From an uncultured Verrucomicrobiae bacterium (GTDB lineage: Bacteria; Verrucomicrobiota; Verrucomicrobiia; Chthoniobacterales; UBA10450), in the NCBI GenBank assembly GCA_963834385.1, contig CAWIBO010000003.1, positions 451,313 through 515,312 on the forward strand: 64,000 bases of DNA. The letters run 5' to 3'. Below the pieces are notes generated by a model. The model ran no database searches. It was not told where the DNA came from and saw nothing but the letters and a program-made list of their open reading frames with translations. The translations under genes and the position numbers were made by a program. Every line of letters starts with the position of its first letter. The stretch's first letter is position 1. Of the stretch, positions 51,720 through 64,000 are shown piece by piece.

Positions 51720-52058
51720 TCAGGGCAAAATGCTGACTTTGTCGATGACGTTGTCCCCGCCCACTTTCAGGTAGGAGACACGGACCTTGAGATTCTTTCG
51801 CAAACCGGCGGCCTCGACGATTTTGCCGTCGTTGTCGACGTAGGTCACCTCGGAAGCAAAGCGGAACACAACCGGTTCGCCGGCGTTCACGCCGGTATGG
51901 AGCACGAGACTTTTGCCCGGGGTAAAGTCGGTGATCGTGCCGGTGGCTTCTTCGCGCTGCGCCGCGGTCGGCGCGACCGAAGGAACGGCCGGGATGGTCT
52001 GGGCGTAAAGCAGCGAGGGAAGAAGCGCAACAAGGAGGACGAGAGAGCGAACAGTCAT
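51720..52058 (-). CDS. Small exported OB-fold-like hypothetical protein
   Basis: Signal peptide; GTITDF...VRVSY pattern; SD GGAG upstream. Confidence 0.65.
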   Translation of the reverse strand: MTVRSLVLLVALLPSLLYAQTIPAVPSVAPTAAQREEATGTITDFTPGKSLVLHTGVNAGEPVVFRFASEVTYVDNDGKIVEAAGLRKNLKVRVSYLKVGGDNVIDKVSILP

Positions 52059-52121
52059 TTCTCCTGATTCGCATCTCGGGGAGGAAGGGTGGGGGAAATT
52101 CCCAACTTTTCGGGAGCACTT

Positions 52122-52164
52122 TTCCTTCTGCCTTCTTAATTCTTCCTTCTTAACTCTTAATTCT
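52122..52164 (+). repeat. Degenerate heptamer tract (TTCTTAA-like)
   Basis: ttccttctgccttcttaattcttccttcttaactcttaattct. Confidence 0.6.
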
Positions 52165-52212
52165 CCCTCCGTTCTTGCACGTAAGGCCGTCCTTGGGCAC
52201 GATTACTCTTTA

Positions 52213-52536
52213 ATGAGCACACCCAATACAGCGCAGCGTTCGGCGGGTCGCTGGACGAGAGGAAAATTAAAGGCCTCCATCTCGGCCATTGGTCTGGCAG
52301 TCTTAGCCCTGGGTTTGGACGCTTGCGTGTCGCCTTACGGCACCACCGGCGTCGCCTACCGCTCCGGCGGCTATTACGGCGGATCGTCCGTCAGCGTGGC
52401 CGTGGGAGATCGTCCGTATTACAACCGCGGCCCCGGCTATTATGTCGGCCGGACCTACTACGTCTGGCGTCCGGGCCATTGGCGTCATCGTCACGGCCGC
52501 CGTTACTGGATCCGCGGTCGCTACGTCCGCCGTTAA
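52213..52536 (+). CDS. Putative lipoprotein with YXWGXW-like Tyr/Trp/Arg-rich tail
   Basis: LDAC lipobox; YVWRPGHW...YWIRGRY. Confidence 0.65.
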   Translation: MSTPNTAQRSAGRWTRGKLKASISAIGLAVLALGLDACVSPYGTTGVAYRSGGYYGGSSVSVAVGDRPYYNRGPGYYVGRTYYVWRPGHWRHRHGRRYWIRGRYVRR

Positions 52537-52610
52537 CGGATCACGAGCCGCTCCGAGAGTCGAAAAACCCTGATTGAACCCCGGCGTAATCTGGGGGAAG
52601 AATATCCGTC

Positions 52611-53201
52611 ATGGAAGGCACCCGCATTTCGAGCGAGGAAAAGTCGTCGTTCGGCACCTATCTCGGGGTTGGCGCGCTTATCGTTTTTGCGCTGATCGGG
52701 CTTTATTTCTTCGTCTTCACTCAAAAGGAGAAGGCGGAGACGACCGGGTTTGATCCGGAGCGGCCGGTGCCCGAGGAAGCCACCATCGAGCGGCGGCTCG
52801 GTCCATCGGCCTATGCAGTGGTGCGCGGAACCAAGGGGGAAACGCCGTTCCAGAACAAACTCTACGAGGAACAACGCCCGGGCCTTTACGTCGACGTCAT
52901 CACCGGCGAACCCATCTTCAGTTCCTCCGATAAGTTTAATTCGGGGCTGGGGTTGCCTGCTTTCACCAAGCCGATCTCGAACGACCTGATCACCGTGTCG
53001 CTCGATACCTCCAACAACATGCAGCGGACCGAGGTCCGGGCGAAACGGAGCAACGCCCGCCTGGGGTATCTGTTCATTGAGCCCGCCTCACCCACCGGCC
53101 AGATCTACTCGATCTATTCCGTGGCGGTGAACTTCGTCCCGCAGGAACGCATGCAGGAGCAAGGCTACGAGTCCTTCCAGCATCTGCTGGAGAAAAAATA
53201 G
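52611..53201 (+). CDS. Membrane-anchored MsrB (SelR)-like protein lacking catalytic residues
   Basis: GLYVDVITGEPIFSSSDKFNSGLGLPAF and RTEVR are retained; GHVF is replaced by GYLF and RYCINS by IYSIYS. Confidence 0.8.
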   Translation: MEGTRISSEEKSSFGTYLGVGALIVFALIGLYFFVFTQKEKAETTGFDPERPVPEEATIERRLGPSAYAVVRGTKGETPFQNKLYEEQRPGLYVDVITGEPIFSSSDKFNSGLGLPAFTKPISNDLITVSLDTSNNMQRTEVRAKRSNARLGYLFIEPASPTGQIYSIYSVAVNFVPQERMQEQGYESFQHLLEKK

Positions 53202-53202
53202 C

Positions 53203-53612
53203 CCCGGTAGGGCCCCTCCCCGGTAGGGCGAGACTCCGTCGAGCCTGGGAGAAAGCTTCGCCTCGGAGGGACCTGCTTCCGCAGGTCCACGGACGAGCGG
53301 AAGCTCGCTCCTTCCTTGGGAAGACAGGATTAACAGGATTTTGCAGGATTCCTTTGGGATCACCACCACCGCGCACAGCGGTCGCGAAGCATCCTCCCAG
53401 GCTCCGCAGAGCGTCGCCCTACCGAAGAATCCATTCCGACCATTCACGATTCACCATTAACCATTCACGCCCCACGCCCCCGGTAGGGCGAGACTCCGTC
53501 GAGCCTGGGAGAGAGCTTCGCCCCGGAGGGACCTGCTTCCGCAGGTCCACGGACGAGCGGAAGCTCGTCCCTCCGTCAGGAAGACAGGATTAACAGGAAG
53601 ATCAGGATTCGG
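53203..53612. repeat. Mosaic REP/BIME-like intergenic repeat, about 1.5 units of ~260 bp
   Basis: GTAGGGCGAGACTCCGTCGAGCC at 53223 and 53483; GGAGGGACCTGCTTCCGCAGGTCC at 53265 and 53525; GACAGGATTAACAGGA; CCATTCA heptamers. Confidence 0.85.
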
Positions 53613-53697
53613 GGAAAGCGGGATGCCCAAACGCTCGTCCGCTGCCAACGCGCGATTGTTATTGCCACCCGCCCGTGGTCCCCGTAGAACCCGCGCT

Positions 53698-54468
53698 ATG
53701 AAAAGGTTCGCTCTTATCTGTGCCTTGTGTGCCCCTCTCGCGCTCGCTGTCGCTGGACCGGACCCGCTTCCCGTTTCCCACAAAGCGACCACAGAGATGG
53801 CGCCGGTGGCCGACGACTTCTCCTGGACGGGATTTTACGTCGGTCTGCGGCTCGGCTACGGCTGGCATGACGGCTCCATTTCCTCGGAACTTCTTCCGAA
53901 TGATCTGTTCTTTATCGAACCGGGCACTTTGGAGAATGACGCTGACGGGATCACGGGTGGCGGTCAACTGGGGTTCAACTGGCAATTGGGGCGATTTGTC
54001 CTGGGCGCCGAGGCCGACTTCTCCGGAGCAGCCGTCGACGACGAATCCAACCGGGCGATCGCCATTGAGCCGGGCCCGTTTCCGGGCAACGAACCTTTGC
54101 GGCACGAGATCGACTGGTTCGGAACCGTGCGGGGCCGCCTCGGCTTTGCGCCGACCCAGCGCCTTCTCGTCTATGGCACCGGCGGCTTCGCTTATGCGCA
54201 CATCGAGCAGACGGCCGGCATTATCGTCCCGGTGACGGACTACGTGAACCGCGTGGAACAGACCGAAGTGGGCTGGACCCTGGGCGGCGGGATTGAATAC
54301 GCGCTCGGCCGGAATTGGTCGGTCAAAGCGGAGTATCTCTACCTCGATTTCGGGAAATCCTCGATGACCGCGTTGGCGGCCGATCCAAACTTCGCTCCGT
54401 TTCGAGTGAATTACGATTGGGACAACGATCTGCACAGCTTCTCCATCGGTGTGAACTACCTGTTTTAG
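53698..54468 (+). CDS. Outer-membrane beta-barrel (Omp25/Omp31/RopB-like)
   Basis: FSWTGFYVG, GGQLGFNWQ, WFGTVRGRLG, GWTLGGGIEY, KAEYLYLDFG, terminal F. Confidence 0.88.
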   Translation: MKRFALICALCAPLALAVAGPDPLPVSHKATTEMAPVADDFSWTGFYVGLRLGYGWHDGSISSELLPNDLFFIEPGTLENDADGITGGGQLGFNWQLGRFVLGAEADFSGAAVDDESNRAIAIEPGPFPGNEPLRHEIDWFGTVRGRLGFAPTQRLLVYGTGGFAYAHIEQTAGIIVPVTDYVNRVEQTEVGWTLGGGIEYALGRNWSVKAEYLYLDFGKSSMTALAADPNFAPFRVNYDWDNDLHSFSIGVNYLF

Positions 54469-54574
54469 GGAGAGGTGCGCGGCTCCGCCGTCAACCTTTC
54501 GCATCAATCAGAGATCGGGCGCCGGGGATCGGCTTGCGGTCGCAGCAATTCCCGGTGACACATCGCGCTTCGCA

Positions 54575-54955
54575 CGCTGGCGAAGCGTCCTCCCACGCTC
54601 CGCAGAGCGTCGCCCCCGTCGAGCCTGAGAGAAAGCCTCGCCCCGGAGGGACCTGCTTCCGCAGGTCCACGGACGAGCGGAAGCTCGTCCCTCCACTCAG
54701 AAAGACAGGATTTACAGGAGGGACAGGATTCGGGAAGAGGACTGAGTCATTTCGACAAAGGCGCCTCGCTCCGGACGCTGGCGAAGCATCCTCCCACGCT
54801 CCGCAGAGCGTCGCCCTACCGGGGAAGCCATTCCGACCATTCACGATTCACCATTAACCATTCACGCCCACGCCCCCGGTAGGGCGAGACTCCGTCGAGC
54901 CTGGGAGAAAGCTTCGCCCCACCATTCACGACTTACGATTCACCATGCACGCCCG
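54575..54955. repeat. Mosaic REP/BIME-like intergenic repeat (second cluster)
   Basis: 54781-54920 is nearly identical to 53384-53524; hairpin at 54644; GTAG-REP at 54879. Confidence 0.85.
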
Positions 54956-54998
54956 CTAGGACCACTGGACGTCGCGCCGGAAACAGCTACCAACAGAC

Positions 54999-56288
54999 AT
55001 GGGTTATCTGCTCATCGGCATTGTCCTGGTCGGCGCGGCCTTGCTCGGCTCGCTGGTCAGGCGTTGGCCGGCCACCCCGACCATGATCTATCTGGCGGCC
55101 GGGGTCGGCCTCGGTCCGCTCGGCCTCGGCATTTTCTCCGTCGACGCGCTCAGGAACTCCAGCCTCCTCGAATGGCTGGCGGAGATTGGCGTGATCGTCT
55201 CCCTCTTCACCGCCGGACTCAAATTGCGCGTCCCCTTGAGCAATCCCCACTGGTGGATCCCGCTCCGGCTCGCTTTTGGTTCCATGACCCTGACCGTCGG
55301 CCTGCTCACCGCGATCGGCGTTTATGCGCTCGGTCTGCCACTGGGCGTGGCGGTTATCTTAGGCGCGGTGCTCGCCCCCACGGATCCGGTGCTCGCCTCC
55401 GAGGTGCAGCTCGCTCATCCCCACGAGCGCAGCCGGCTCCGCTTTAGCATCACCGGGGAAGCCGGGCTCAATGACGGCACCGCATTTCCTTTCATCATGC
55501 TGGGGCTGGGTTTGCTCGGGCTGCACGAGATCGGGTCGGGAGGCTGGCGTTGGTGGACGGTGGATGTCGTTTGGGCCATTGTCGGCGGCGTTGCCATCGG
55601 CGCTTTTTCGGGGGCGGCGCTCGCCAAGATCGTGCTGCGCATCCGGCGGCGGCACCGGGAGACACTGGTGCACGATGAATTTCTTGCGCTCGGTCTGCTC
55701 GCTTTTTCCTACGGTGCGGCCGTGCTCGCGCAGACCTACGGGTTCCTGGCGGTTTTCGCGGCTGGTCTGGCCCTGCGCTTGGTCGAGCACCGGGAAACCG
55801 GCGACAAGCCGCCCGACGAAGTTCTCGCGCTCGAGGAAGCGGCGCGGGAGGAAGCGATCGCCGAGCGACCCGATCGCGCCCCGGCTTACATGGCGGGCGC
55901 CGTGTTGCGGTTTAATGAACAGATCGAGCGTATTCTCGAGGTCACGCTGGTCCTGGTGCTCGGCGCGGCCCTGGCCCCGGCCTATCTTCGACTCGAGGCT
56001 GTCTGGCTCATTGCCCTGCTTTTTCTGGTTGTTCGTCCGCTCGCCGTCTTCACCGGGTTGCTTGGCCAGAAAATGCCGGGCGCGGAGCGGGGCCTGATTT
56101 CGTGGTTCGGTATCCGCGGGATTGGATCGATCTACTACCTGATGTACGCGATCAATCACGGTCTCGGAGAGGGGGATGCGCTTCGGCTCATCGCGCTCAC
56201 CCTCACCACCGTGGCCGCCTCGATCGTCCTGCACGGGGTCACGGTCACCCCACTCATGGCCTGGCACCGCCGAAGAATCGACCGCTGA
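54999..56288 (+). CDS. CPA1/NhaP-type cation:proton antiporter
   Basis: LAPTDPVLA, GEAGLNDG, WFGIRGIGS; multiple TM helices. Confidence 0.9.
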   Translation: MGYLLIGIVLVGAALLGSLVRRWPATPTMIYLAAGVGLGPLGLGIFSVDALRNSSLLEWLAEIGVIVSLFTAGLKLRVPLSNPHWWIPLRLAFGSMTLTVGLLTAIGVYALGLPLGVAVILGAVLAPTDPVLASEVQLAHPHERSRLRFSITGEAGLNDGTAFPFIMLGLGLLGLHEIGSGGWRWWTVDVVWAIVGGVAIGAFSGAALAKIVLRIRRRHRETLVHDEFLALGLLAFSYGAAVLAQTYGFLAVFAAGLALRLVEHRETGDKPPDEVLALEEAAREEAIAERPDRAPAYMAGAVLRFNEQIERILEVTLVLVLGAALAPAYLRLEAVWLIALLFLVVRPLAVFTGLLGQKMPGAERGLISWFGIRGIGSIYYLMYAINHGLGEGDALRLIALTLTTVAASIVLHGVTVTPLMAWHRRRIDR

Positions 56289-56309
56289 AGAGCAGGAGAG
56301 CGTAACCAC

Positions 56310-56590
56310 GCCTCTCCGCCCTACCATTCACAATTCACCACTCACGATTCACGCCCACGCCTCCCCCCGGTAGGGCGAGACTCCGTCGAGCCTGGGAGAA
56401 AGCCTCGCCTCATTTAAAAAGACAGGATTAACAGGAGGGGACAGGATTAAAACCAAGTCGTCACCCTCTTGAGGGTGGTGCCGCGTTCCGCATGGTGGCG
56501 ACACGTCCTCCAGGCTCCGCAGAGCGTCGCTCACCTCGGAACCCAGCGCCGTCCACGATTCACAATTTACCATTCACGATTCACGCCTTT
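56310..56590. repeat. Mosaic REP/BIME-like intergenic repeat (third cluster)
   Basis: GTAGGGCGAGACTCCGTCGAGCC at 56370; GACAGGATTAACAGGA; GGCTCCGCAGAGCGTCGC; CCATTCA/CGATTCA heptamers. Confidence 0.8.
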
Positions 56591-56709
56591 CGAATTGAGG
56601 GAAGGCCGCGCAAGGCACCGGGCGCGAATACTTAATGTGCCTGGAATAGTGACTTGGGTCGGGAACCGGCCGGGTCGAATTCAGGCAAATTGCGGAATAA
56701 CACCAATCT

Positions 56710-57909
56710 ATGATCAAACTAACTGCACTATTTTTAACGCTTTCCTTGTCCCTGACCGGGGCAATGATCGCCCAGGAACCCGCGGCGGAGGAATCGCCTG
56801 CCGCCGCTGCGCCGAGCGAAACCGGCAAAAAGGCCGGGCGCGAGCCCCAGGCCCAGTCGGGCGGCCAGTCCAAGGCCGAACGGAAGGCTGAACGCAAGGA
56901 GGCTCGGCGCGATGCCGCGGCCGAACAGAACGCAGCGCCTTCGAGCGGAGCCCAGGAAGCACCGCAGACCGGCCAAGGTAAGGGAGACAAGAAAGCCGCT
57001 CGCCAGGAGCAGAAAGCCGCGCGCAAGGAGCAAAAAGCCGCAGGTCAAAGTAACTCCGGCGAAATGCAGACCACGCCCGACGCAGCCGTTTCCGGTTCGA
57101 CCGAGGCCGCCGCAGCCACGGGGCAAAAGGCCAATCGGAAAGAGAACAATCGCAAAGGAAAAGGTCAGAACGAATCCGTAGGAGCCAGCACGGCGCCCTC
57201 CTCAGAGACCACCACCACTACGGGTGCAAGCACCGAGACCAGCACCACGGCGACTGCTTCACCAGCCGAAGCCGGCGCGGACGTTTCCGCGACCACCACA
57301 ACCTCCGCTGCTCCTGCCACAGCCACGACAACCACCACCGGCGAAGCCACCGCAGGTCAGCGGAACCAAAAGAAGGCCGCGAAGAAACTGGAACGCCAGC
57401 GTCTCCAGCAGATCCAGACCGAAGTCGCCAACTTCAAGGCGGAAGCACGTCCGCAACAGGTTCCCTCGGTCAGTTTCCGCCAGGACTACCGGATCCAGGG
57501 TGCCGAACAGTGGCAGGGACCGCAGTATGAAGTCTACCGCTCCTACCGCCCGGAACGGCGCGACCGCAGCTGGTATGAGTCGCGGTATGACCGCGTCGAG
57601 CTGATCGGCGGCGGCTATTACTATTACAACAGTGGATACTGGTACCCGGCCTGGGGCTACAGCCCGCAGCACGAATATTATGCTTACGACGCGCCGATCT
57701 ATGTCGGTCAGCGGGCGCTCCCGCCGGACCAGGTGATCGCGCAAGTCCAGGCCGTGCTCAAGGAGATGGGCTATTATCGCGGACAGGTGGACGGCCTCCT
57801 CGGGCCGCTTACCCGTGAAGCGCTCATCGGCTATCAATCCGACACCGGCCTGCGTGGGACCGCTGTGATCGACCAGCCGACGCTTGATTCGCTGGGAATG
57901 ACTTCCTAG
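56710..57909 (+). CDS. Exported low-complexity protein with C-terminal peptidoglycan-binding domain
   Basis: Signal peptide, K/Q- and T/A-rich tracts, Y/W-rich segment, VQAVLKEMGYYRGQVDGLLGPLTREAL. Confidence 0.8.
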   Translation: MIKLTALFLTLSLSLTGAMIAQEPAAEESPAAAAPSETGKKAGREPQAQSGGQSKAERKAERKEARRDAAAEQNAAPSSGAQEAPQTGQGKGDKKAARQEQKAARKEQKAAGQSNSGEMQTTPDAAVSGSTEAAAATGQKANRKENNRKGKGQNESVGASTAPSSETTTTTGASTETSTTATASPAEAGADVSATTTTSAAPATATTTTTGEATAGQRNQKKAAKKLERQRLQQIQTEVANFKAEARPQQVPSVSFRQDYRIQGAEQWQGPQYEVYRSYRPERRDRSWYESRYDRVELIGGGYYYYNSGYWYPAWGYSPQHEYYAYDAPIYVGQRALPPDQVIAQVQAVLKEMGYYRGQVDGLLGPLTREALIGYQSDTGLRGTAVIDQPTLDSLGMTS

Positions 57910-57928
57910 GGAACAGAACTCCGCCAAG

Positions 57929-57961
57929 AAGCCGCCGGGGCCCAGCCCCGGCGGCTTTTTT
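57929..57961 (+). terminator. Rho-independent terminator
   Basis: AAGCCGCCGGGG-CCCAG-CCCCGGCGGCTT-TTTT, 19 nt after the stop. Confidence 0.85.
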
Positions 57962-58948
57962 CGTTTTGGGGAGGCTCGTTGAGACAACCGACCCAAGCGT
58001 CCGACGATTGCTGCAGCGCGCCGGGAGATGGAACGGAATGCTAAAGCATTCGACAGAGAGCCTGCCTCGCAATGGCTATGACGGTGTGGATGGCGGCCGG
58101 GGGGCGGCGCCGAATGTTTGCCCGGAGGGACCTGCTTCCGCAGGTCCGCGAACGAGGACGAGCCGAAGCTCGTTTTTCCGCAAATGGGAGCAGGGGATTA
58201 GGTTGTCGCTCCTCCCGAATCTCGGCGAAGCCGAGATCGAATGCTTAAAGCATACGACACCGCCACGTCGGCCATTTGGCAAACGTGGTCCAAACTTCGT
58301 TTCACAGCGCTCCGCTCGGGGTGAAGGATCGCTTTCGGAGGGACCTGCTTCCGCAGGTCCGGGGACGAGCCAAAGCTCGTCCCTCCGTAAATGGGAAGAC
58401 GAAATCACGTCGTCGCGTAAGTCCTCCCCAGGGCCGTTGCTCCTCCCAGCCCCCACGGCGGAGTTCGATATCGAATGCTTTAAGCATACGACGTCGCAAC
58501 AGCCTCTACATCCGGGCCGGTGCGAGGACTCGGTCTGCTCCCTTTGAATGCGCTACAACGACATGGCATCGCGTAAGCGTGTTTGGCGCTATCGGGATTA
58601 GCGGTCGCGGACGACGGGAGCGGGCCGTTTTGGTCGGCCCTACACGTTGTCGAATGCTTTAAGCATGCGGTAGAGCCGGACGTAGGTGGGTGCAGCGCGA
58701 TTGGATTAGCGATCGCGGGGCAACGGGATCAGAACGGTTCGGATGGCGCGCTATGGGATCGAATGCTTTAAGCATACGATATCGGAAACGGCCCGACCGT
58801 CTGGAACGTGGGGCACCAGCATCCGTAAACGCGCTGGTTTGGTTGGTGCAGCGGATTCTGATCGAATGCTTTAAGCATTCGGACTCCCACGACGTCGTCC
58901 GCGATTTGCTGATCGACAGCGAAATGGGGAATCGGACGGTTGGCTCGC

Positions 58949-59344
58949 CTAGGACAACCGGGGAAGTTGCTTCCGCATCACCGCGGCCATCATGTTTGTG
59001 CGCTGACGAGCGGCCCGGCGCTTTTTCGGCAGCCGCGGCGGCAACGGACTGGGACCGCGTTGGGAACCAGCACGCACCACCACGCGGCGCAGGGCCGAAT
59101 AGAGGGGATGCTTGGGGTTGGCGCGATAGAACCGATGACGCCGGTCGCTTCGACTCACGATCAGGCCAGCCCGAGAGAGGTTGATCAATTCATCCTGGAC
59201 CGTGCGCAGGGCCAGGAAACTAAGCCGGGACAATTCCCGGACATAAAGTTCCTGCCCGGGATTGGTAAAGAGCAATCGCAGAAGTTCCGCCCTCACTCGC
59301 GGAAACAACAAATCCAGCAGAGTCCGTTTCATGGGCAACGACAT
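58949..59344 (-). CDS. Stand-alone winged-HTH (ArsR-like) DNA-binding protein
   Basis: LLFPRVRAELLRLLF...LYVRELSRL...TVQDELINLSRAGLI...FYRANPKHPLY resembles the wHTH domain of wHTH-nucleotidyltransferase proteins; no NTase domain follows. Confidence 0.75.
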   Translation of the reverse strand: MSLPMKRTLLDLLFPRVRAELLRLLFTNPGQELYVRELSRLSFLALRTVQDELINLSRAGLIVSRSDRRHRFYRANPKHPLYSALRRVVVRAGSQRGPSPLPPRLPKKRRAARQRTNMMAAVMRKQLPRLS

Positions 59345-59618
59345 TAACCTCGGATGCTTAAAGCAGTCGAGTCGCCATCAATACACGCAGTCGGGAGGGA
59401 AACGTCATCGTATGCTTTAAGCATACGACTTCGCAACGGCGGTGGCCCGGCAAAGGGTGGCGCCAAAACTGGTTCCGCCAGGCTCTACAGGGTGAAGGTC
59501 ACTTACGGAGGGACCTGCTTCCGCAGGTCCGGGGACAAATCGAAGCTCGTCCTTCCGATGCAAAAGGGCGAGGTGGGCGCCCGGTTTTGTCCTGGGCATC
59601 TGACCTGCTGTCGAGGGG

Positions 59619-60416
59619 GTGGTGGTTTACGAGATTCACGGAGGCGGCTATTGCGGGACGCTGGCGCCAGAGGAAGTGGCGGAGCGTTTCTACGCTGGGC
59701 AGATTGCTACCAGTGACCGTTGTCGTCTTAAGGGTTCGCCCGGCTGGCGCACGGTCGATGAATGCTTCCCTTTGTTAAAATGGCACGCGCCCTATTCCGT
59801 CGTTGTGCCCCCAAGATCACCTTCGGCGCTAGGTCCGGGTGGCGTCGTGTTGGTCGCGGTTGTCGGCCTGGCAATCTCGCTCGCGGCCATAGGGCTTATC
59901 AGCCGTGCGATGTCTTCGCGCGACCTGCCGGGAGCGCCCGGAACGAAAGGAGCGATTGCATCATCAAGTCTGCCGCGGATCGAGGCGTCTTCCTTCCCGC
60001 AGCCGACAGTGACTCCCGGGCGCCCAGTCGGCTCGCGCAAGCAGCAAAATCAAACGCACCACCCCGTGTTATCGCCTCAAGTCGGATCGGCCCGGAGGCC
60101 GCAACTGGGCATGTCAACATCCGTTCAGACGCCAGCGCCGCCGATCGTGGCCTTCCGGGATGTGATTGTCCCGTGGAACCTCCACACCGTCGTCCACGGC
60201 GTGGGGGGGCAGAGTCTGGCTTTGCGGATCCGTGATACGAACATCACCACCATTGACGTTTGGATCGGCGGGGTTAGGCGCAGCTATACAAAGCAGAAAG
60301 GGATAACAGGAAGCGGGACGGACGAAACGCTGGTCTACACCAACGGGAAGACGCGCCTCTATTACGTCTGGGAGATTAGCGGAAAGTTGAACCACTGCAT
60401 CCTTCGTATCCGATGA
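59619..60416 (+). CDS. GYF_2/DUF4339-like membrane protein
   Basis: GTLAPEEVAERFYAGQI...GSPGWRTV N-domain, single TM, Pro/Ser linker, beta-rich C-domain; start uncertain. Confidence 0.55.
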   Translation: MVVYEIHGGGYCGTLAPEEVAERFYAGQIATSDRCRLKGSPGWRTVDECFPLLKWHAPYSVVVPPRSPSALGPGGVVLVAVVGLAISLAAIGLISRAMSSRDLPGAPGTKGAIASSSLPRIEASSFPQPTVTPGRPVGSRKQQNQTHHPVLSPQVGSARRPQLGMSTSVQTPAPPIVAFRDVIVPWNLHTVVHGVGGQSLALRIRDTNITTIDVWIGGVRRSYTKQKGITGSGTDETLVYTNGKTRLYYVWEISGKLNHCILRIR

Positions 60417-60868
60417 CATCTCGAATGCTTTAAGCATACGACACCGGAACGGACTCTTCCTGGGACGGCGGGGCTTCAAAGGTTGCCGCGCGATGGATTA
60501 GTTGAATGCTTTAAGCATACGACGTCGCAACGGCGACTCTCAGGGGATGGGGGGCCTTCAAAGGTGTGACGCTAGGATTTAATCGAATGCTTTAAGCATA
60601 CGATACCGGAACGGCTTTCATCCTGGAGTGGGAGGCAACAGAGTCTGTGAGACTGGGCTCGATGATTTGTTATCGAATGCTTTAAGCATACGACCCCGGA
60701 ACGGAAGTCTGGTATCTGGTGTTAGGCGGTCCAGACGGCCGACTTATCCCATCGCCTGGGGGAAGGGATTCTTGCGGAGGGACCTGCTTCCGCAGGTCCG
60801 CGGGCGAGCGGAAGAGATCTTCCCTGCATGGCTGGACATCGGCGTTGGGATCAGGCAAAAGATGAGCC

Positions 60869-61114
60869 GTGCGAAAGCATCTGTTTGGCTTTGCCATCGG
60901 AGTAACCGCGTTGCTCTGCAGCGCAACCCCGACAAAGGCGCGTTTGGGTGAAACAGCGTTGCAATGTGCCGATCGCTACGGAGCGCCAAAGGACGATGTG
61001 GTCTCGAAGACGAGGGACAAGACCTCCCCGCTGCTCGCGGGCGCGATCCATCATCTTTACGAGTATCAAGGCTGGCGGATTCGCGCGGCTTTTCTGACGG
61101 TCGACGGCCCGGCG
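60869..61114 (+). pseudogene. 5' fragment (82 codons) of the secreted protein encoded intact at 62277
   Basis: Near-identical to 62277-62522 up to ...LTVDGPA, then similarity stops and the doc 3' end follows. Confidence 0.8.
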
Positions 61115-61156
61115 CGGAGTAAGTCGCCGCTCTCCGGCGTCACCCGTGAGATGCCG

Positions 61157-61552
61157 CTAAGGCCGGCGGGCTTTGGCGCTGTTTGTTCTTAGCCACGCCG
61201 CGTATTTGCGTTCCGTCAGTCCGCTGGCGGCAAGGGCCAGCGTTTGCACCGCCGCATCTGCCTCGGCCGCCTGAAACTTGTAGCCATTCAATTCCAGGAA
61301 CAACACCGCGGTGACAAACGCTGTCCGTTTATTCCCGTCAATAAATGGATGATTCTTGGCCAGGCCGAAAGCATAGCTGGCCGCGAGGTCGAAAAGGGTA
61401 GGGGTGCCATGAGCGAAGAGTTGTCGGGGGCGAGCCAGCGCCGAATCCAAAAGGCCCTCCTCTCGCAGCCCATTCGACCCGCCAAACTGCGCCAGCGATT
61501 GTTCCTGGAGAGCGAGAACGGTCTCGCGCAGAACCCACTCCGGTTCGGTCAC
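61157..61552 (-). CDS. doc: Doc-family (Fic domain) toxin
   Basis: GLREEGLLDSALARP, HPFIDGNKRTA. Confidence 0.92.
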   Translation of the reverse strand: MTEPEWVLRETVLALQEQSLAQFGGSNGLREEGLLDSALARPRQLFAHGTPTLFDLAASYAFGLAKNHPFIDGNKRTAFVTAVLFLELNGYKFQAAEADAAVQTLALAASGLTERKYAAWLRTNSAKARRP

Positions 61553-61779
61553 TTGGCCAACTCGCGCAAGGTGTGCCGGTAGCGCTGCATGATATCCTGG
61601 GCCGCTTCCAACTGACGCAGCACTTCCGGGTTATCGGAGCTCAAGCGGAGAGTGCCATCACCGGAGGGTGTAACTAAAACCGTGTCACCTTCGCCGGCCT
61701 TAAGATGAGAGAGCGCTTCCTTGGGAAGAACGAGCCCGACCGAGTTCCCAATCTTGCGCAACTGCAATTTGAGAGTCAT
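61549..61779 (-). CDS. AbrB/MazE-type antitoxin
   Basis: LRKIGNSVGLVLPKE...IMQRYRHTLRELAK; GTGA overlap with doc. Confidence 0.9.
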   Translation of the reverse strand: MTLKLQLRKIGNSVGLVLPKEALSHLKAGEGDTVLVTPSGDGTLRLSSDNPEVLRQLEAAQDIMQRYRHTLRELAK

Positions 61780-61786
61780 GCCGCAC

Positions 61787-61808
61787 TGTAACAACAAATG
61801 TTATAACA
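61787..61808 (-). promoter_or_regulatory. Putative TA autoregulatory operator over the -10 region
   Basis: Perfect palindrome TGTTATAACA (61799-61808) plus an adjacent imperfect copy; TACAGT -10 lies 5 nt before the ATG. Confidence 0.6.
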
Positions 61809-62276
61809 GCAAGGACGTTTGTCGGCGCAGATATTTAGACGGGGGGGCAATTTCAAAATGCGCCACGCCTGCGGCGTGCACCTGTACGAACCAGAACCAT
61901 ACATGGTTCCGAAGTTATGAAATGTTTAATAATATAGACGCGACGCCGAAGGGTCTCCCGGTGTCGCGAGGCGAGAGCCGATGAGCGGTTATCGAATGCT
62001 TTAAGCATACGATGTCGGAACGGACTTCATCGTAGGACGGGCGCCAACAGTTGTCGTGAGACTGGGCCCGAGGATCTGTTATCGAATGCTTTAAGCATAC
62101 GACCCCGGAACGGCAGTCTGGTATCCGGTGTTAGGCGGTCCTTACGGCCGACTTATCCCATCGCCCGGGGGAAGGGATTCTTGCGGAGGGACCTGCTTCC
62201 GCAGGTCCGCGGGCGAGGGAAGAGATCTTCCCTGCATGGCTGGACATCGGCACTGGGATCAGGCAAAAGATCAACC

Positions 62277-62855
62277 GTGCGAAAGCATCTGTTTGGCTTT
62301 GTCATTGGAGTAACCGCGTTGCTCTGCAGCGCAACCCCGACGAAGGCGCGTTTGGGTGAAACAGCGTTGCAATGCGCCGATCGCTACGGAGCGCCAAAGG
62401 ACGATGTGGTTTCGAAGACGAGGGACAAAACTTCCCCGCTGCTCGCGGGCGCGATCCATCATGTTTACGAGTATCAAGGCTGGAGGATTCGGGCAGCTTT
62501 TCTGACGGTCGACGGCCCGGCGGTGCGGATGGAGTTCTCAAAAATCTTTGGGCCCGGCGTGCAGCATCGAATCCAGGATTATGAGCTCCAAGCGATCATG
62601 CAGGCGAACGCGAGCCTCTACACTTGGAAACCGGCCGCGTATCGCAATCCAAATTCATCGGTGAACCCCCTTAGCCAGGCCATCGGCGGTGCCTTGATGG
62701 GCCAAAAGATGTGGCAAAGAACAGACGGCGCCCTCCTCTCGCATAGTGGCATTGGCAACACGGTCAGACTCGAACTGCCCGCCGCCCGCGCCTATGAAGC
62801 GAAGCTAAAGGAAGAACAGGAGCGAAAAACGCGAGCAGCAGTGCCCCGCTTCTAA
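62277..62855 (+). CDS. Hypothetical secreted protein (intact copy)
   Basis: GTG start, signal peptide, ARLGETALQCADRYGAP motif, 192 aa. Confidence 0.7.
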   Translation: MRKHLFGFVIGVTALLCSATPTKARLGETALQCADRYGAPKDDVVSKTRDKTSPLLAGAIHHVYEYQGWRIRAAFLTVDGPAVRMEFSKIFGPGVQHRIQDYELQAIMQANASLYTWKPAAYRNPNSSVNPLSQAIGGALMGQKMWQRTDGALLSHSGIGNTVRLELPAARAYEAKLKEEQERKTRAAVPRF

Positions 62856-63190
62856 CGCGCTATTAGCTGCTGAACAGTTGTATCGTCGAATGCTTTAAGC
62901 ATACGATACCGAAACGGACTTCATCCTGGAACGAGATGCACAGTTGTCATGAGACTGGGTCCGAGGATTGGTTATCGAATGCTTTAAGCATACGATCTCG
63001 CAAACGCGCCTGGGCGTTAAGCGTACGGAGTGGGCTGAGATCTAAATTAGAGTATCGACGTGAGGAGGCCTGCAGCGGATCAGCCAGATGGCGGGCCGAA
63101 CGGTGTCGAGGGATCTCCCTCAGCTGCCTCTAATCCAATATAGAAATGTAGATCAATAACACAGACGCGAACCGACATGTCCTCAACTGT

Positions 63191-63994
63191 TTAAACGCGA
63201 TCCTCCGACGCTCCCCCGAGAAGATTGGACTGCGGCTCTACCGAGACGGTCAATGCTTTAACCCCAGTAACGAGCATCAGATTACTCGCGGCAGACAACA
63301 GCCGCGTGGTGGTATCCGCTTCCAGCTTCAACAACATCAGATCACGGAAATCCTGCAGGACCTGCAGGCGCCGTTCCGTTGGTTTGCCACGGACGGCCTC
63401 GTTAAGATGCTTGAACACCTTTGCGGCATGGGGCCACGCGCTGCCCATCACCCCGCCTTTTGCCACTCCGACGCCCGCGTTAATCGCAATCCGCGTCGCA
63501 ACAGCGATTCCGCCAAAGGTGGGCAAAGGAAGCAAAACTGAAAACAAAAGCACACTCTTCCCGATGTCTTCCCACGTTAAACCCTCGAGCTGACCTTTCT
63601 CAGCTAATTCGACGAGATCATTTAGCTGCTCCTCTGCGGACCTGTATTGCAGCCACTCCTCATCGCTAAGTTGAATTGGGTTTGATTGAATCTGACGATG
63701 ATCGAATTGCCGGTCGAATTCATCTCGCAAATGTCTTGTTCTGGACGGATCGACGCTTGCCTGTGCCTTGAACGCGTCCATAAGGAACTCTGATGAATGC
63801 GCGTTGAAGCGAGCCAAGTGACGCTGAAGGACCGTGCACGCGTACAAGGTCGTGCTGGAAACATCGGCTTTGGGATTGGCATAAAGTCCATTGAAAAGCC
63901 GCTCGGCTTCGCGCGAAAGGTAGTAACTGGCTCTCGCGTCCAATTCTGCTGCGGTTCGCATCTGCTCCACGAACAACTGCATGTAATCCGTCAT
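63191..63994 (-). CDS. Hypothetical protein with a hydrophobic Gly-rich segment (possibly 5'-truncated by the window end)
   Basis: 267-aa ORF in visibly lower-GC DNA; the frame stays open to the window edge. Confidence 0.55.
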   Translation of the reverse strand: MTDYMQLFVEQMRTAAELDARASYYLSREAERLFNGLYANPKADVSSTTLYACTVLQRHLARFNAHSSEFLMDAFKAQASVDPSRTRHLRDEFDRQFDHRQIQSNPIQLSDEEWLQYRSAEEQLNDLVELAEKGQLEGLTWEDIGKSVLLFSVLLPLPTFGGIAVATRIAINAGVGVAKGGVMGSAWPHAAKVFKHLNEAVRGKPTERRLQVLQDFRDLMLLKLEADTTTRLLSAASNLMLVTGVKALTVSVEPQSNLLGGASEDRV

Positions 63995-64000
63995 CCATTG

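Follow-up and report, generated by a model that had tools for sequence, protein, structure and literature searches.

The final 6 kb of a 64,000-nucleotide stretch of DNA from an uncultured Verrucomicrobiae bacterium of the order Chthoniobacterales (assembly GCA_963834385.1, contig CAWIBO010000003.1, here C3; the stretch at its full length is hereafter the window) carry an array of 21-bp palindromes, inside which lies a gene for a small winged helix-turn-helix (wHTH) protein. The palindrome is most likely the binding site of this protein, as its placement, a residue-to-base code and the co-occurrence of gene and repeat in related genomes suggest. The protein is predicted with high confidence to bind the site as a dimer and to repress its own leaderless promoter. 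Comparison of genomes makes it probable that an orphaned antitoxin operator became, by way of its binding protein, a spreading element akin to the repetitive extragenic palindromes (REPs). The preliminary description of the array had overlooked the cognate gene, as well as the copies that relatives have across their genomes and within genes.

A palindrome lies directly upstream of the wHTH gene at all 50 loci of a set made up of the 30 best matches and 20 loci of one more distant genus, with 7–10 of the 10 arm pairs formed, and a second copy follows the stop codon at 41 of 48 loci but in only 10 of 184 control windows. A later gene set added 24 genes whose helix could be read; for 5 of these, the interval searched showed no clear palindrome. 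Across the 50 loci the left arm resembles a -35 box and a TATAAT-like hexamer follows it after 17 nt; in 28 of them the start codon comes 34–38 nt after the palindrome begins. Such spacing of the -35 and -10 elements to the start is the geometry of a leaderless promoter. A consensus promoter scan returned no promoter in the window, this genome's copy failing it. At five other wHTH genes (L027, L033, L038, L231 and L235) the apparent start at the leaderless position is ATT, ATC or ATA. The protein itself aligns with its relatives from Met5 (59332), and Arg47 opens its recognition helix, residues 46–58. Its match to the NCBIfam ArsR/SmtB profile (E 2e-5), like all its family scores, falls below the cut-off; its AF2 model has pLDDT values of 90–96 over residues 11–90 and its best fold matches among ArsR/MarR proteins. 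Modelling as a homodimer gave a score of 0.53, whereas the best control had 0.00; contact agreement was at least 88% and pLDDT at least 83. Of 30 solved pairs 20 attained the same mark, as did 1 of 23 single chains, and the protein may have passed through likeness, since ArsR-type dimers are already solved.

Protein and palindrome are further tied by a code in which one recognition-helix residue evidently predicts base 6 of the palindrome. Residue 47 and base 6 combine as Q with C (20), R with T (19), H with G (4), C with T (1), S with C (4) and S with T (2), and the normalised mutual information of the two positions is 0.92, as compared with 0.63 for the next column. The H–G pairing is present in both main clades, and the tree requires six residue and five base changes. 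From a further test set of 36 rows, 17 were set aside (6 already used, 6 fragments and 5 without a clear palindrome); all 19 remaining genes, which have a readable helix and a clear palindrome and some of which are tandem paralogues of genes already used, obey the code. The present genome combines Arg47 with T-type copies. Dispersed sites follow suit in most cases: G086 has three types of gene and as many types of dispersed site, and G089, with R only, has T-type sites almost exclusively. Site variants mostly match the gene types of their genome, G078 and G069 being exceptions unless Ser tolerates T.

The array of sixteen palindromes given in the preliminary description is real. A motif scan of the whole window finds 15 sites within two mismatches between 58237 and 62995, nine of them exact, beside one copy with a 1-bp deletion; the first 58 kb lack the motif, and 100 shuffles gave no match. 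The reported periods of 81, 81, 90, 90 and 89 bp were recovered, as was a core far better conserved than its spacers: mean pairwise identity among the 14 plus-strand copies is 0.95 in the core and 0.29–0.36 in the flanks outside the tail. Three features required amendment. The site is palindromic, but the array copies fall short of the stated 10-1-10 dyad, pairing at 9 of 10 arm positions with an A at position 18. Short gene-free gaps are present, but the gaps between copies range over 37–1298 bp and four, of 467–1298 bp, contain genes. The directional tail exists at +4..+11 (identity 0.64), but is mostly flank carried along by local duplication. Two duplicated segments begin at a palindrome, 60582–61114 versus 61991–62522 (93% identical) and 58236–58387 versus 59407–59557 (76%). 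The whole 2.9-Mb assembly, which is 89.6% complete, has two copies outside the array, C2:844474 and C5:61999, both lone and intergenic perfect dyads. Only 1 kb separates the array from the end of contig C3. Misassembly, a caveat raised at the outset, is made less likely by one contig of a public soil run, which agrees over 60281–60516, the only part of the array covered, with four differences, the three listed ones all in spacer.

Gene and repeat evidently co-occur across genomes. Within the family of the present bacterium, 110 of the 355 genomes have a wHTH homologue; nearly all compared genomes are incomplete metagenome-assembled genomes. A strict generic palindrome pattern, which misses several variants, occurs in 142 of the 355 (0–34 copies; none for the reversed-pattern control): in 79 of the 110 with the gene and in 63 of the 245 without it, and at three or more copies in 54 of 110 versus 13 of 245, kin among these not being independent. 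Unpublished genomes (G002, G007, G014, G072, G171, G225, G226 and G245) are included in the family-wide tallies; G002 and G007 are empty rows in the thrC and hutI comparisons below and G072 in the pdxA and valS comparison, and no claim depends solely on such genomes. Near-complete assemblies have a cluster at the gene together with lone copies (6 + 11 in G022, 2 + 13 in G216). Single matches in viral contigs numbered two, read as chance, and two exact patterns gave none in metagenome contigs.

Comparison of alleles establishes that a 27–29-bp site was, by all appearances, inserted in frame into unrelated housekeeping genes. Of 38 lone copies examined, at least 10 are in-frame parts of conserved genes, as are most of the lone copies in genus g35; the tagged genes are, as we take them from sequence recognition, trpA, thrC, hutI, pdxA, valS, argJ, queA and others. 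The thrC site is filled in 15 of 22 genomes, decayed in one and empty in six, with at least eight variant changes among 16 filled alleles. That of pdxA is filled in 14 of 26, in two reading frames and several lengths (108–162 versus 93 nt), and that of valS in 9 of 21, while hutI is filled in 3 of 29 and in three more genomes, an origin in one clade being rejected (approximately unbiased test, p 0.012, on a quick tree). The conserved unit of the lone copies has the form AAC-21-GTT, with values of 0.93, 0.86 and 0.87 for its AAC and GTT ends. A weak A-rich patch lies 6–9 nt outside each arm family-wide, where this genome's tail has AA. A long fold-back extension of the arms was considered and rejected, pairing exceeding that of shuffled sequence only 3 nt beyond the core.

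The protein clearly descends, to judge from its homologues, from wHTH–nucleotidyltransferase (NTase) antitoxins with a single-copy operator. Its best PADLOC match is PDC-M05A (E 2e-18), and among longer relatives 11 of the 40 picked from a profile search carry a Pol-beta nucleotidyltransferase. The family protein thus amounts to an antitoxin DNA-binding domain without enzyme or toxin; the NTase domain and an adjacent HEPN toxin are absent at this locus and not common to the loci of the family. Beyond the family, homologues occur in 18 of 242 sampled genomes of the class and are mostly 196-aa wHTH–NTase proteins; the gene that comes next is weakly similar to HEPN (in 7 of 8, all below cut-off). 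Intact antitoxin relatives have a palindromic promoter operator, single-copy in 5 of 5 genomes tested, and an MNT antitoxin binds its own promoter according to the part of the published account consulted (PMC4621449). One out-of-family locus (L423, in G512) has a wHTH gene without NTase; 35 nt upstream of it stands a 21-bp palindrome that is perfect and similar in outline.

A second gene family, unrelated to the wHTH, evidently repeats the palindrome–gene–palindrome layout. Its palindrome, 19–23 bp long, lies in the same islands and clusters on its own gene for a 65–95-aa helical protein in 3 of 3 clusters. The gene occurs in 36 of 201 genomes (loci L103, L104, L105 and L246–L275), with a copy upstream at 27 and downstream at 26 of 30 loci and a right arm that resembles a -10 box. 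Since the protein has no Pfam, family or fold match (model pTM 0.47), placement alone suggests that it binds DNA. No in-frame insertion was found among the few lone copies checked. The present genome has five copies, at C2:1070250, C2:935759, C3:281028, C5:609436 and C5:610254, two copies in this genome flanking an RRM-like gene.

The notion that, after loss of the enzyme domain and the toxin, the protein–operator pair became a self-favouring element is one we regard as evenly poised. Host repair and replication would stall at bound operators or find them protected, and operator copies of footprint size would be captured elsewhere, chiefly in the neighbourhood of the gene. Copies already present would be overwritten by, or kept as, the variant bound by the resident protein, and unbound ones would decay. 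Copying of the bound operator by host machinery would explain the footprint-sized unit, the clusters beside the gene, the switching of variants at old sites and the convergence of two unrelated proteins. In the window, one copy with the derived A at position 18 may have been amplified together with its right flank by unequal exchange or slippage between palindromes, which would have yielded the 81–90-bp units, the shared tail and the 534-bp duplicate, while passengers such as phd-doc may have accumulated in the unstable region. The broadest form of the proposal, held tentatively and at slightly less than even confidence, is that of a transposase-free element class: a DNA-binding protein freed from its toxin–antitoxin (TA) module would drive the copying and rewriting of its own operator chromosome-wide, with in-frame insertion into essential genes, at least two unrelated Chthoniobacterales families would have come to this independently, and a one-residue change would redirect the spreading sequence.

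Several observations weigh against the spread of an operator through its own protein. The evidence is comparative, binding and movement being read from sequence, and a protein without a catalytic domain would need a host enzyme. The code has two independent contrasts on well-supported branches, so that significance is out of reach, and the lone copies of G078 are T-type, yet its sole detected gene has a C-type promoter copy. Among the 63 genomes that have the pattern without a detected gene, 11 hold at least four copies; some may be explained by incomplete assemblies. Flanks are shared by one unrelated-site pair only (1 of 371 within-genome pairs), and comparison with empty alleles, themselves about 20% diverged, gave no target-site duplication and no clean recent insertion with a readable junction. 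The argJ loop holds the palindrome in L279 and L394 and a different, GTAG-type REP doublet in their relative L397 (G087), so that a tolerant loop can accept other repeats. The present genome has only the two copies outside its array, and its five copies of the second palindrome come without a detected cognate gene.

It is unlikely that the sites are instead kept by host selection for their benefit, the protein being a nucleoid-organising or silencing factor or the array a titrating decoy. Cores do remain intact and symmetric in essential genes over genus-level divergence (position-6 arm pairing 0.92 versus 0.44 shuffled), and lone copies lie along whole chromosomes in G022, G216 and G217, but presence in the family is patchy, at 0–34 strict copies, with empty alleles in close relatives. 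Copies are never closer than 41 bp, which suggests non-overlapping footprints; their spacing is not phased with the helix, which speaks against host selection (Rayleigh p 0.33 for a 10.5-bp period, in an analysis whose grouping of lone sites over-merged 69 of 110). Tagged genes and cargo have no common function, many copies lie mid-gene or between convergent genes, and selection would still require a route for making new sites.

More doubtful is the view that a resident Y1 transposase of the REP-associated tyrosine transposase (RAYT) kind moves a REP-type hairpin in trans, with the wHTH gene only a sequence donor. The layout is indeed that of REP–RAYT loci, with one gene bordered by palindromes, a cluster around it, further copies dispersed over the genome, and flanking repeats that change with the gene, as the consulted part of the published description has it (PMC2817692). 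The core also folds as a hairpin (z -3.3), and the genome has three Y1 matches. These Y1 genes lie elsewhere, however, with no palindrome copy near them; the clusters sit on a gene that encodes a winged helix only, no HUH/Y1 protein, and the variant tracks the wHTH residue. The palindrome has no GTAG/GGAG head, its flank consensus being AAC/GTT on both sides, and is AT-rich, not GC-rich. A separate GGAG-headed REP interleaves with the array; it has 35 copies genome-wide, one variant of which lies at the end of a Y1/RAYT-type gene at C2:395381, and the window's GGAG REPs belong with that gene. Y1/RAYT-type domains were also seen in long open frames with repeat-derived loops at G000:C2:733659 (L100) and G000:C3:125156 (L101), presumably leucyl- and alanyl-tRNA synthetase genes by sequence recognition.

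Very improbable is placement by an integron integrase (IntI) that takes the outer AAC...GTT triplets for a miniature attC/attG. The conserved ends of the lone copies would suit it, as would the RYYYAAC heptamer that starts 25 of 796 arms (10% versus 0.7% background given the first four bases) and the presence of IntI in 161 of 355 family genomes, this one included. The 13-bp stem is nevertheless far below attC length, an attC-like hairpin accompanies 1 of the 25 heptamer arms, and no attC (RYYYAAC...GTTRRRY hairpin, 57–140 bp) lies within 150 bp of the 15 window copies, which also lack the triplets. IntI adds nothing to mean copy number (4.25 versus 4.15 with the wHTH gene, 0.68 versus 0.52 without). 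No IntI stands beside the array, and of three tyrosine recombinases in the genome none is on C3, which ends 1 kb away. Heptamers that abut the palindrome occur in about a dozen genomes (L138, L139, L152 and L134 among them), and GAG often comes next, as it does at the attC ends of this genome. A chromosomal integron at G000:C5:77200–82263 has an IntI above the TIGR02249 cut-off, 3–4 attC-like sites and an IS-like gene nearby. Scarcely credible, finally, is mere local tandem duplication of the promoter region or an artefact at the contig end: the two duplicates do start at palindromes and the array does lie close to the contig end with little independent coverage, but a core this much better conserved than its flanks and like arrays in many independent genomes speak against either, and local duplication cannot yield lone and intragenic copies.

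Table 1. Palindrome copies, genes and other repeats of the array region, in window positions
Feature	Position	Strand	Basis
Degenerate (sixteenth) copy with 1-bp deletion	58034..58053	-	motif comparison
Four copies, at 58237, 58471, 58650 and 58759	58237..58779	+	motif scan
Copy 67 nt past the wHTH stop codon; closes the palindrome–gene–palindrome unit	58862..58882	+	motif scan
Putative cognate gene, stand-alone ArsR-like winged-helix protein, 131 aa	58949..59344	-	profile, fold, AF2 model
Promoter copy (putative operator); left arm at -35 position, probably leaderless promoter	59350..59370	-	same placement at 50/50 loci
Copy 37 bp upstream of the promoter copy; opens 150-bp duplicate of 58236–58387 (76%)	59408..59428	+	
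Cargo open reading frame (ORF), 265 aa, no family; ends 4 nt short of a palindrome	59619..60416	+	
Tandem cluster of four copies, periods 81, 81 and 90; spacers 56–68% alike	60421..60693	+	
Truncated duplicate ORF adjoining the phd-doc pair	60869..61192		
Cargo phd-doc toxin–antitoxin pair	61157..61797	-	TIGR01550 and TIGR02609 above cut-off
Two copies, period 90; start of 534-bp duplicate of 60582–61114 (93%)	61992..62102	+	
Cargo ORF, 224 aa, no family; homologues adjoin the wHTH in two other loci	62181..62855	+	
Two copies, period 89; third copy of the 90-bp unit (84–85%)	62886..62995	+	
Separate 24-bp GGAG-headed REP, five copies: 58124, 58337, 59507, 60776 and 62185	58124..62208	+	outside the palindrome system

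Of the functions first offered for the core, that of a conserved protein-binding site of an undescribed system is the one that agrees with placement, code and co-occurrence, as a prediction. A recombination site finds no support, with no transposase or recombinase among the 120 neighbour ORFs scanned of 170 listed and no conserved neighbour besides the wHTH across 83 loci compared; nor does an RNA-processing signal, the single Rfam match in 52000–64000 scoring 28 bits against a cut-off of 72 and lying outside the array. The exclusion of CRISPR, integron and classic REP was borne out: spacers of 37–1298 bp are not uniform, the short ones being up to 78% alike, and the assembly, at its stated completeness, has no Cas1. 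The preliminary description had named a REP-like scatter with no linked gene family as the outcome that would speak against it; the motif is scattered in that manner in several relatives, but a gene family is tightly linked to it. Insertion in frame in conserved proteins, with empty orthologues, recalls Rickettsia palindromic elements (RPEs) and miniature inverted-repeat transposable elements, but elements of 100–200 bp with terminal inverted repeats and target-site duplication were rejected on the size of the conserved unit, 27–29 bp. The HEPN–MNT module is matched, by sequence, in the wHTH with a palindromic putative operator at its own promoter, and missed in the absent NTase and adjacent HEPN toxin. 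Specificity for defence islands was likewise rejected, the cargo being miscellaneous with few TA and HNH genes. At one locus (L020:1008–3918, in G036), a TIR-domain protein, whose neighbour we take by sequence recognition to be Argonaute-like, an HNH gene, an HTH and nucleotidyltransferase pair and BrnT lie beside both palindrome arrays. An msrB-like gene (SelR domain) at 52611–53201 of the window is also found near the wHTH in four other loci; these differ in the residue of the protein and in the variant of the palindrome, as an orthologous locus that changed in concert should.

The origin and spread of short bacterial palindromic repeats without a known transposase, such as CGTC-REPs, RPEs and small dispersed repeats (SDRs), is an open question. 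In the present case the origin may be traced to a single-copy antitoxin operator and a partner protein is at hand, and the one-residue code offers a direct experimental handle. Through the proposed process, abundant soil bacteria would also have gained new peptide loops in essential enzymes time and again. Neither this repeat nor a partner gene without catalytic function is described in the literature searched, which was covered in part, and the gene–repeat unit has no described counterpart there; were a RAYT to move the site in trans, the unit would become a REP variant.

Among known systems, the parS, matS, SlmA and Noc sites are dispersed, sequence-specific and partly in coding DNA, and the dialects of DNA uptake sequences follow their receptor. 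Unlike all of these, the palindrome is patchy in the family, clustered on its own gene and apparently made by insertion, with no evident chromosomal domain. Autoregulation in HEPN–MNT modules shares the homologous DNA-binding domain and the palindrome at the promoter, whereas here the NTase domain and toxin are missing and the operator is multiplied, not single-copy. Cyanobacterial SDRs, of 21–27 nt, resemble the palindrome in entering genes. Rickettsia RPEs and CGTC-REPs are alike in being small repeats in frame in conserved proteins, and CGTC-REPs are without a dedicated transposase, in the consulted parts of their descriptions (PMC3733652, PMC2229807); RPEs are longer, at about 100–200 bp, the palindrome has no CGTC tag, and those parts name no cognate DNA-binding gene, whereas here one covaries with the repeat. 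The closest likeness in layout is to REP–RAYT systems (REPtrons, REPINs and BIMEs), in which, as far as the sources consulted in part go, one palindrome-flanked gene, mostly single-copy at conserved loci, is accompanied by clustered and scattered copies of a repeat that changes with it (PMC2817692, PMC3733652, PMC3116915). In place of an HUH/Y1 transposase, the partner here is a non-catalytic winged helix; in place of a GTAG/GGAG-headed repeat there is an AT-rich 10-1-10 dyad that overlaps the partner's promoter; and the copies number 2–39, not hundreds, with a specificity that follows a single recognition-helix residue.

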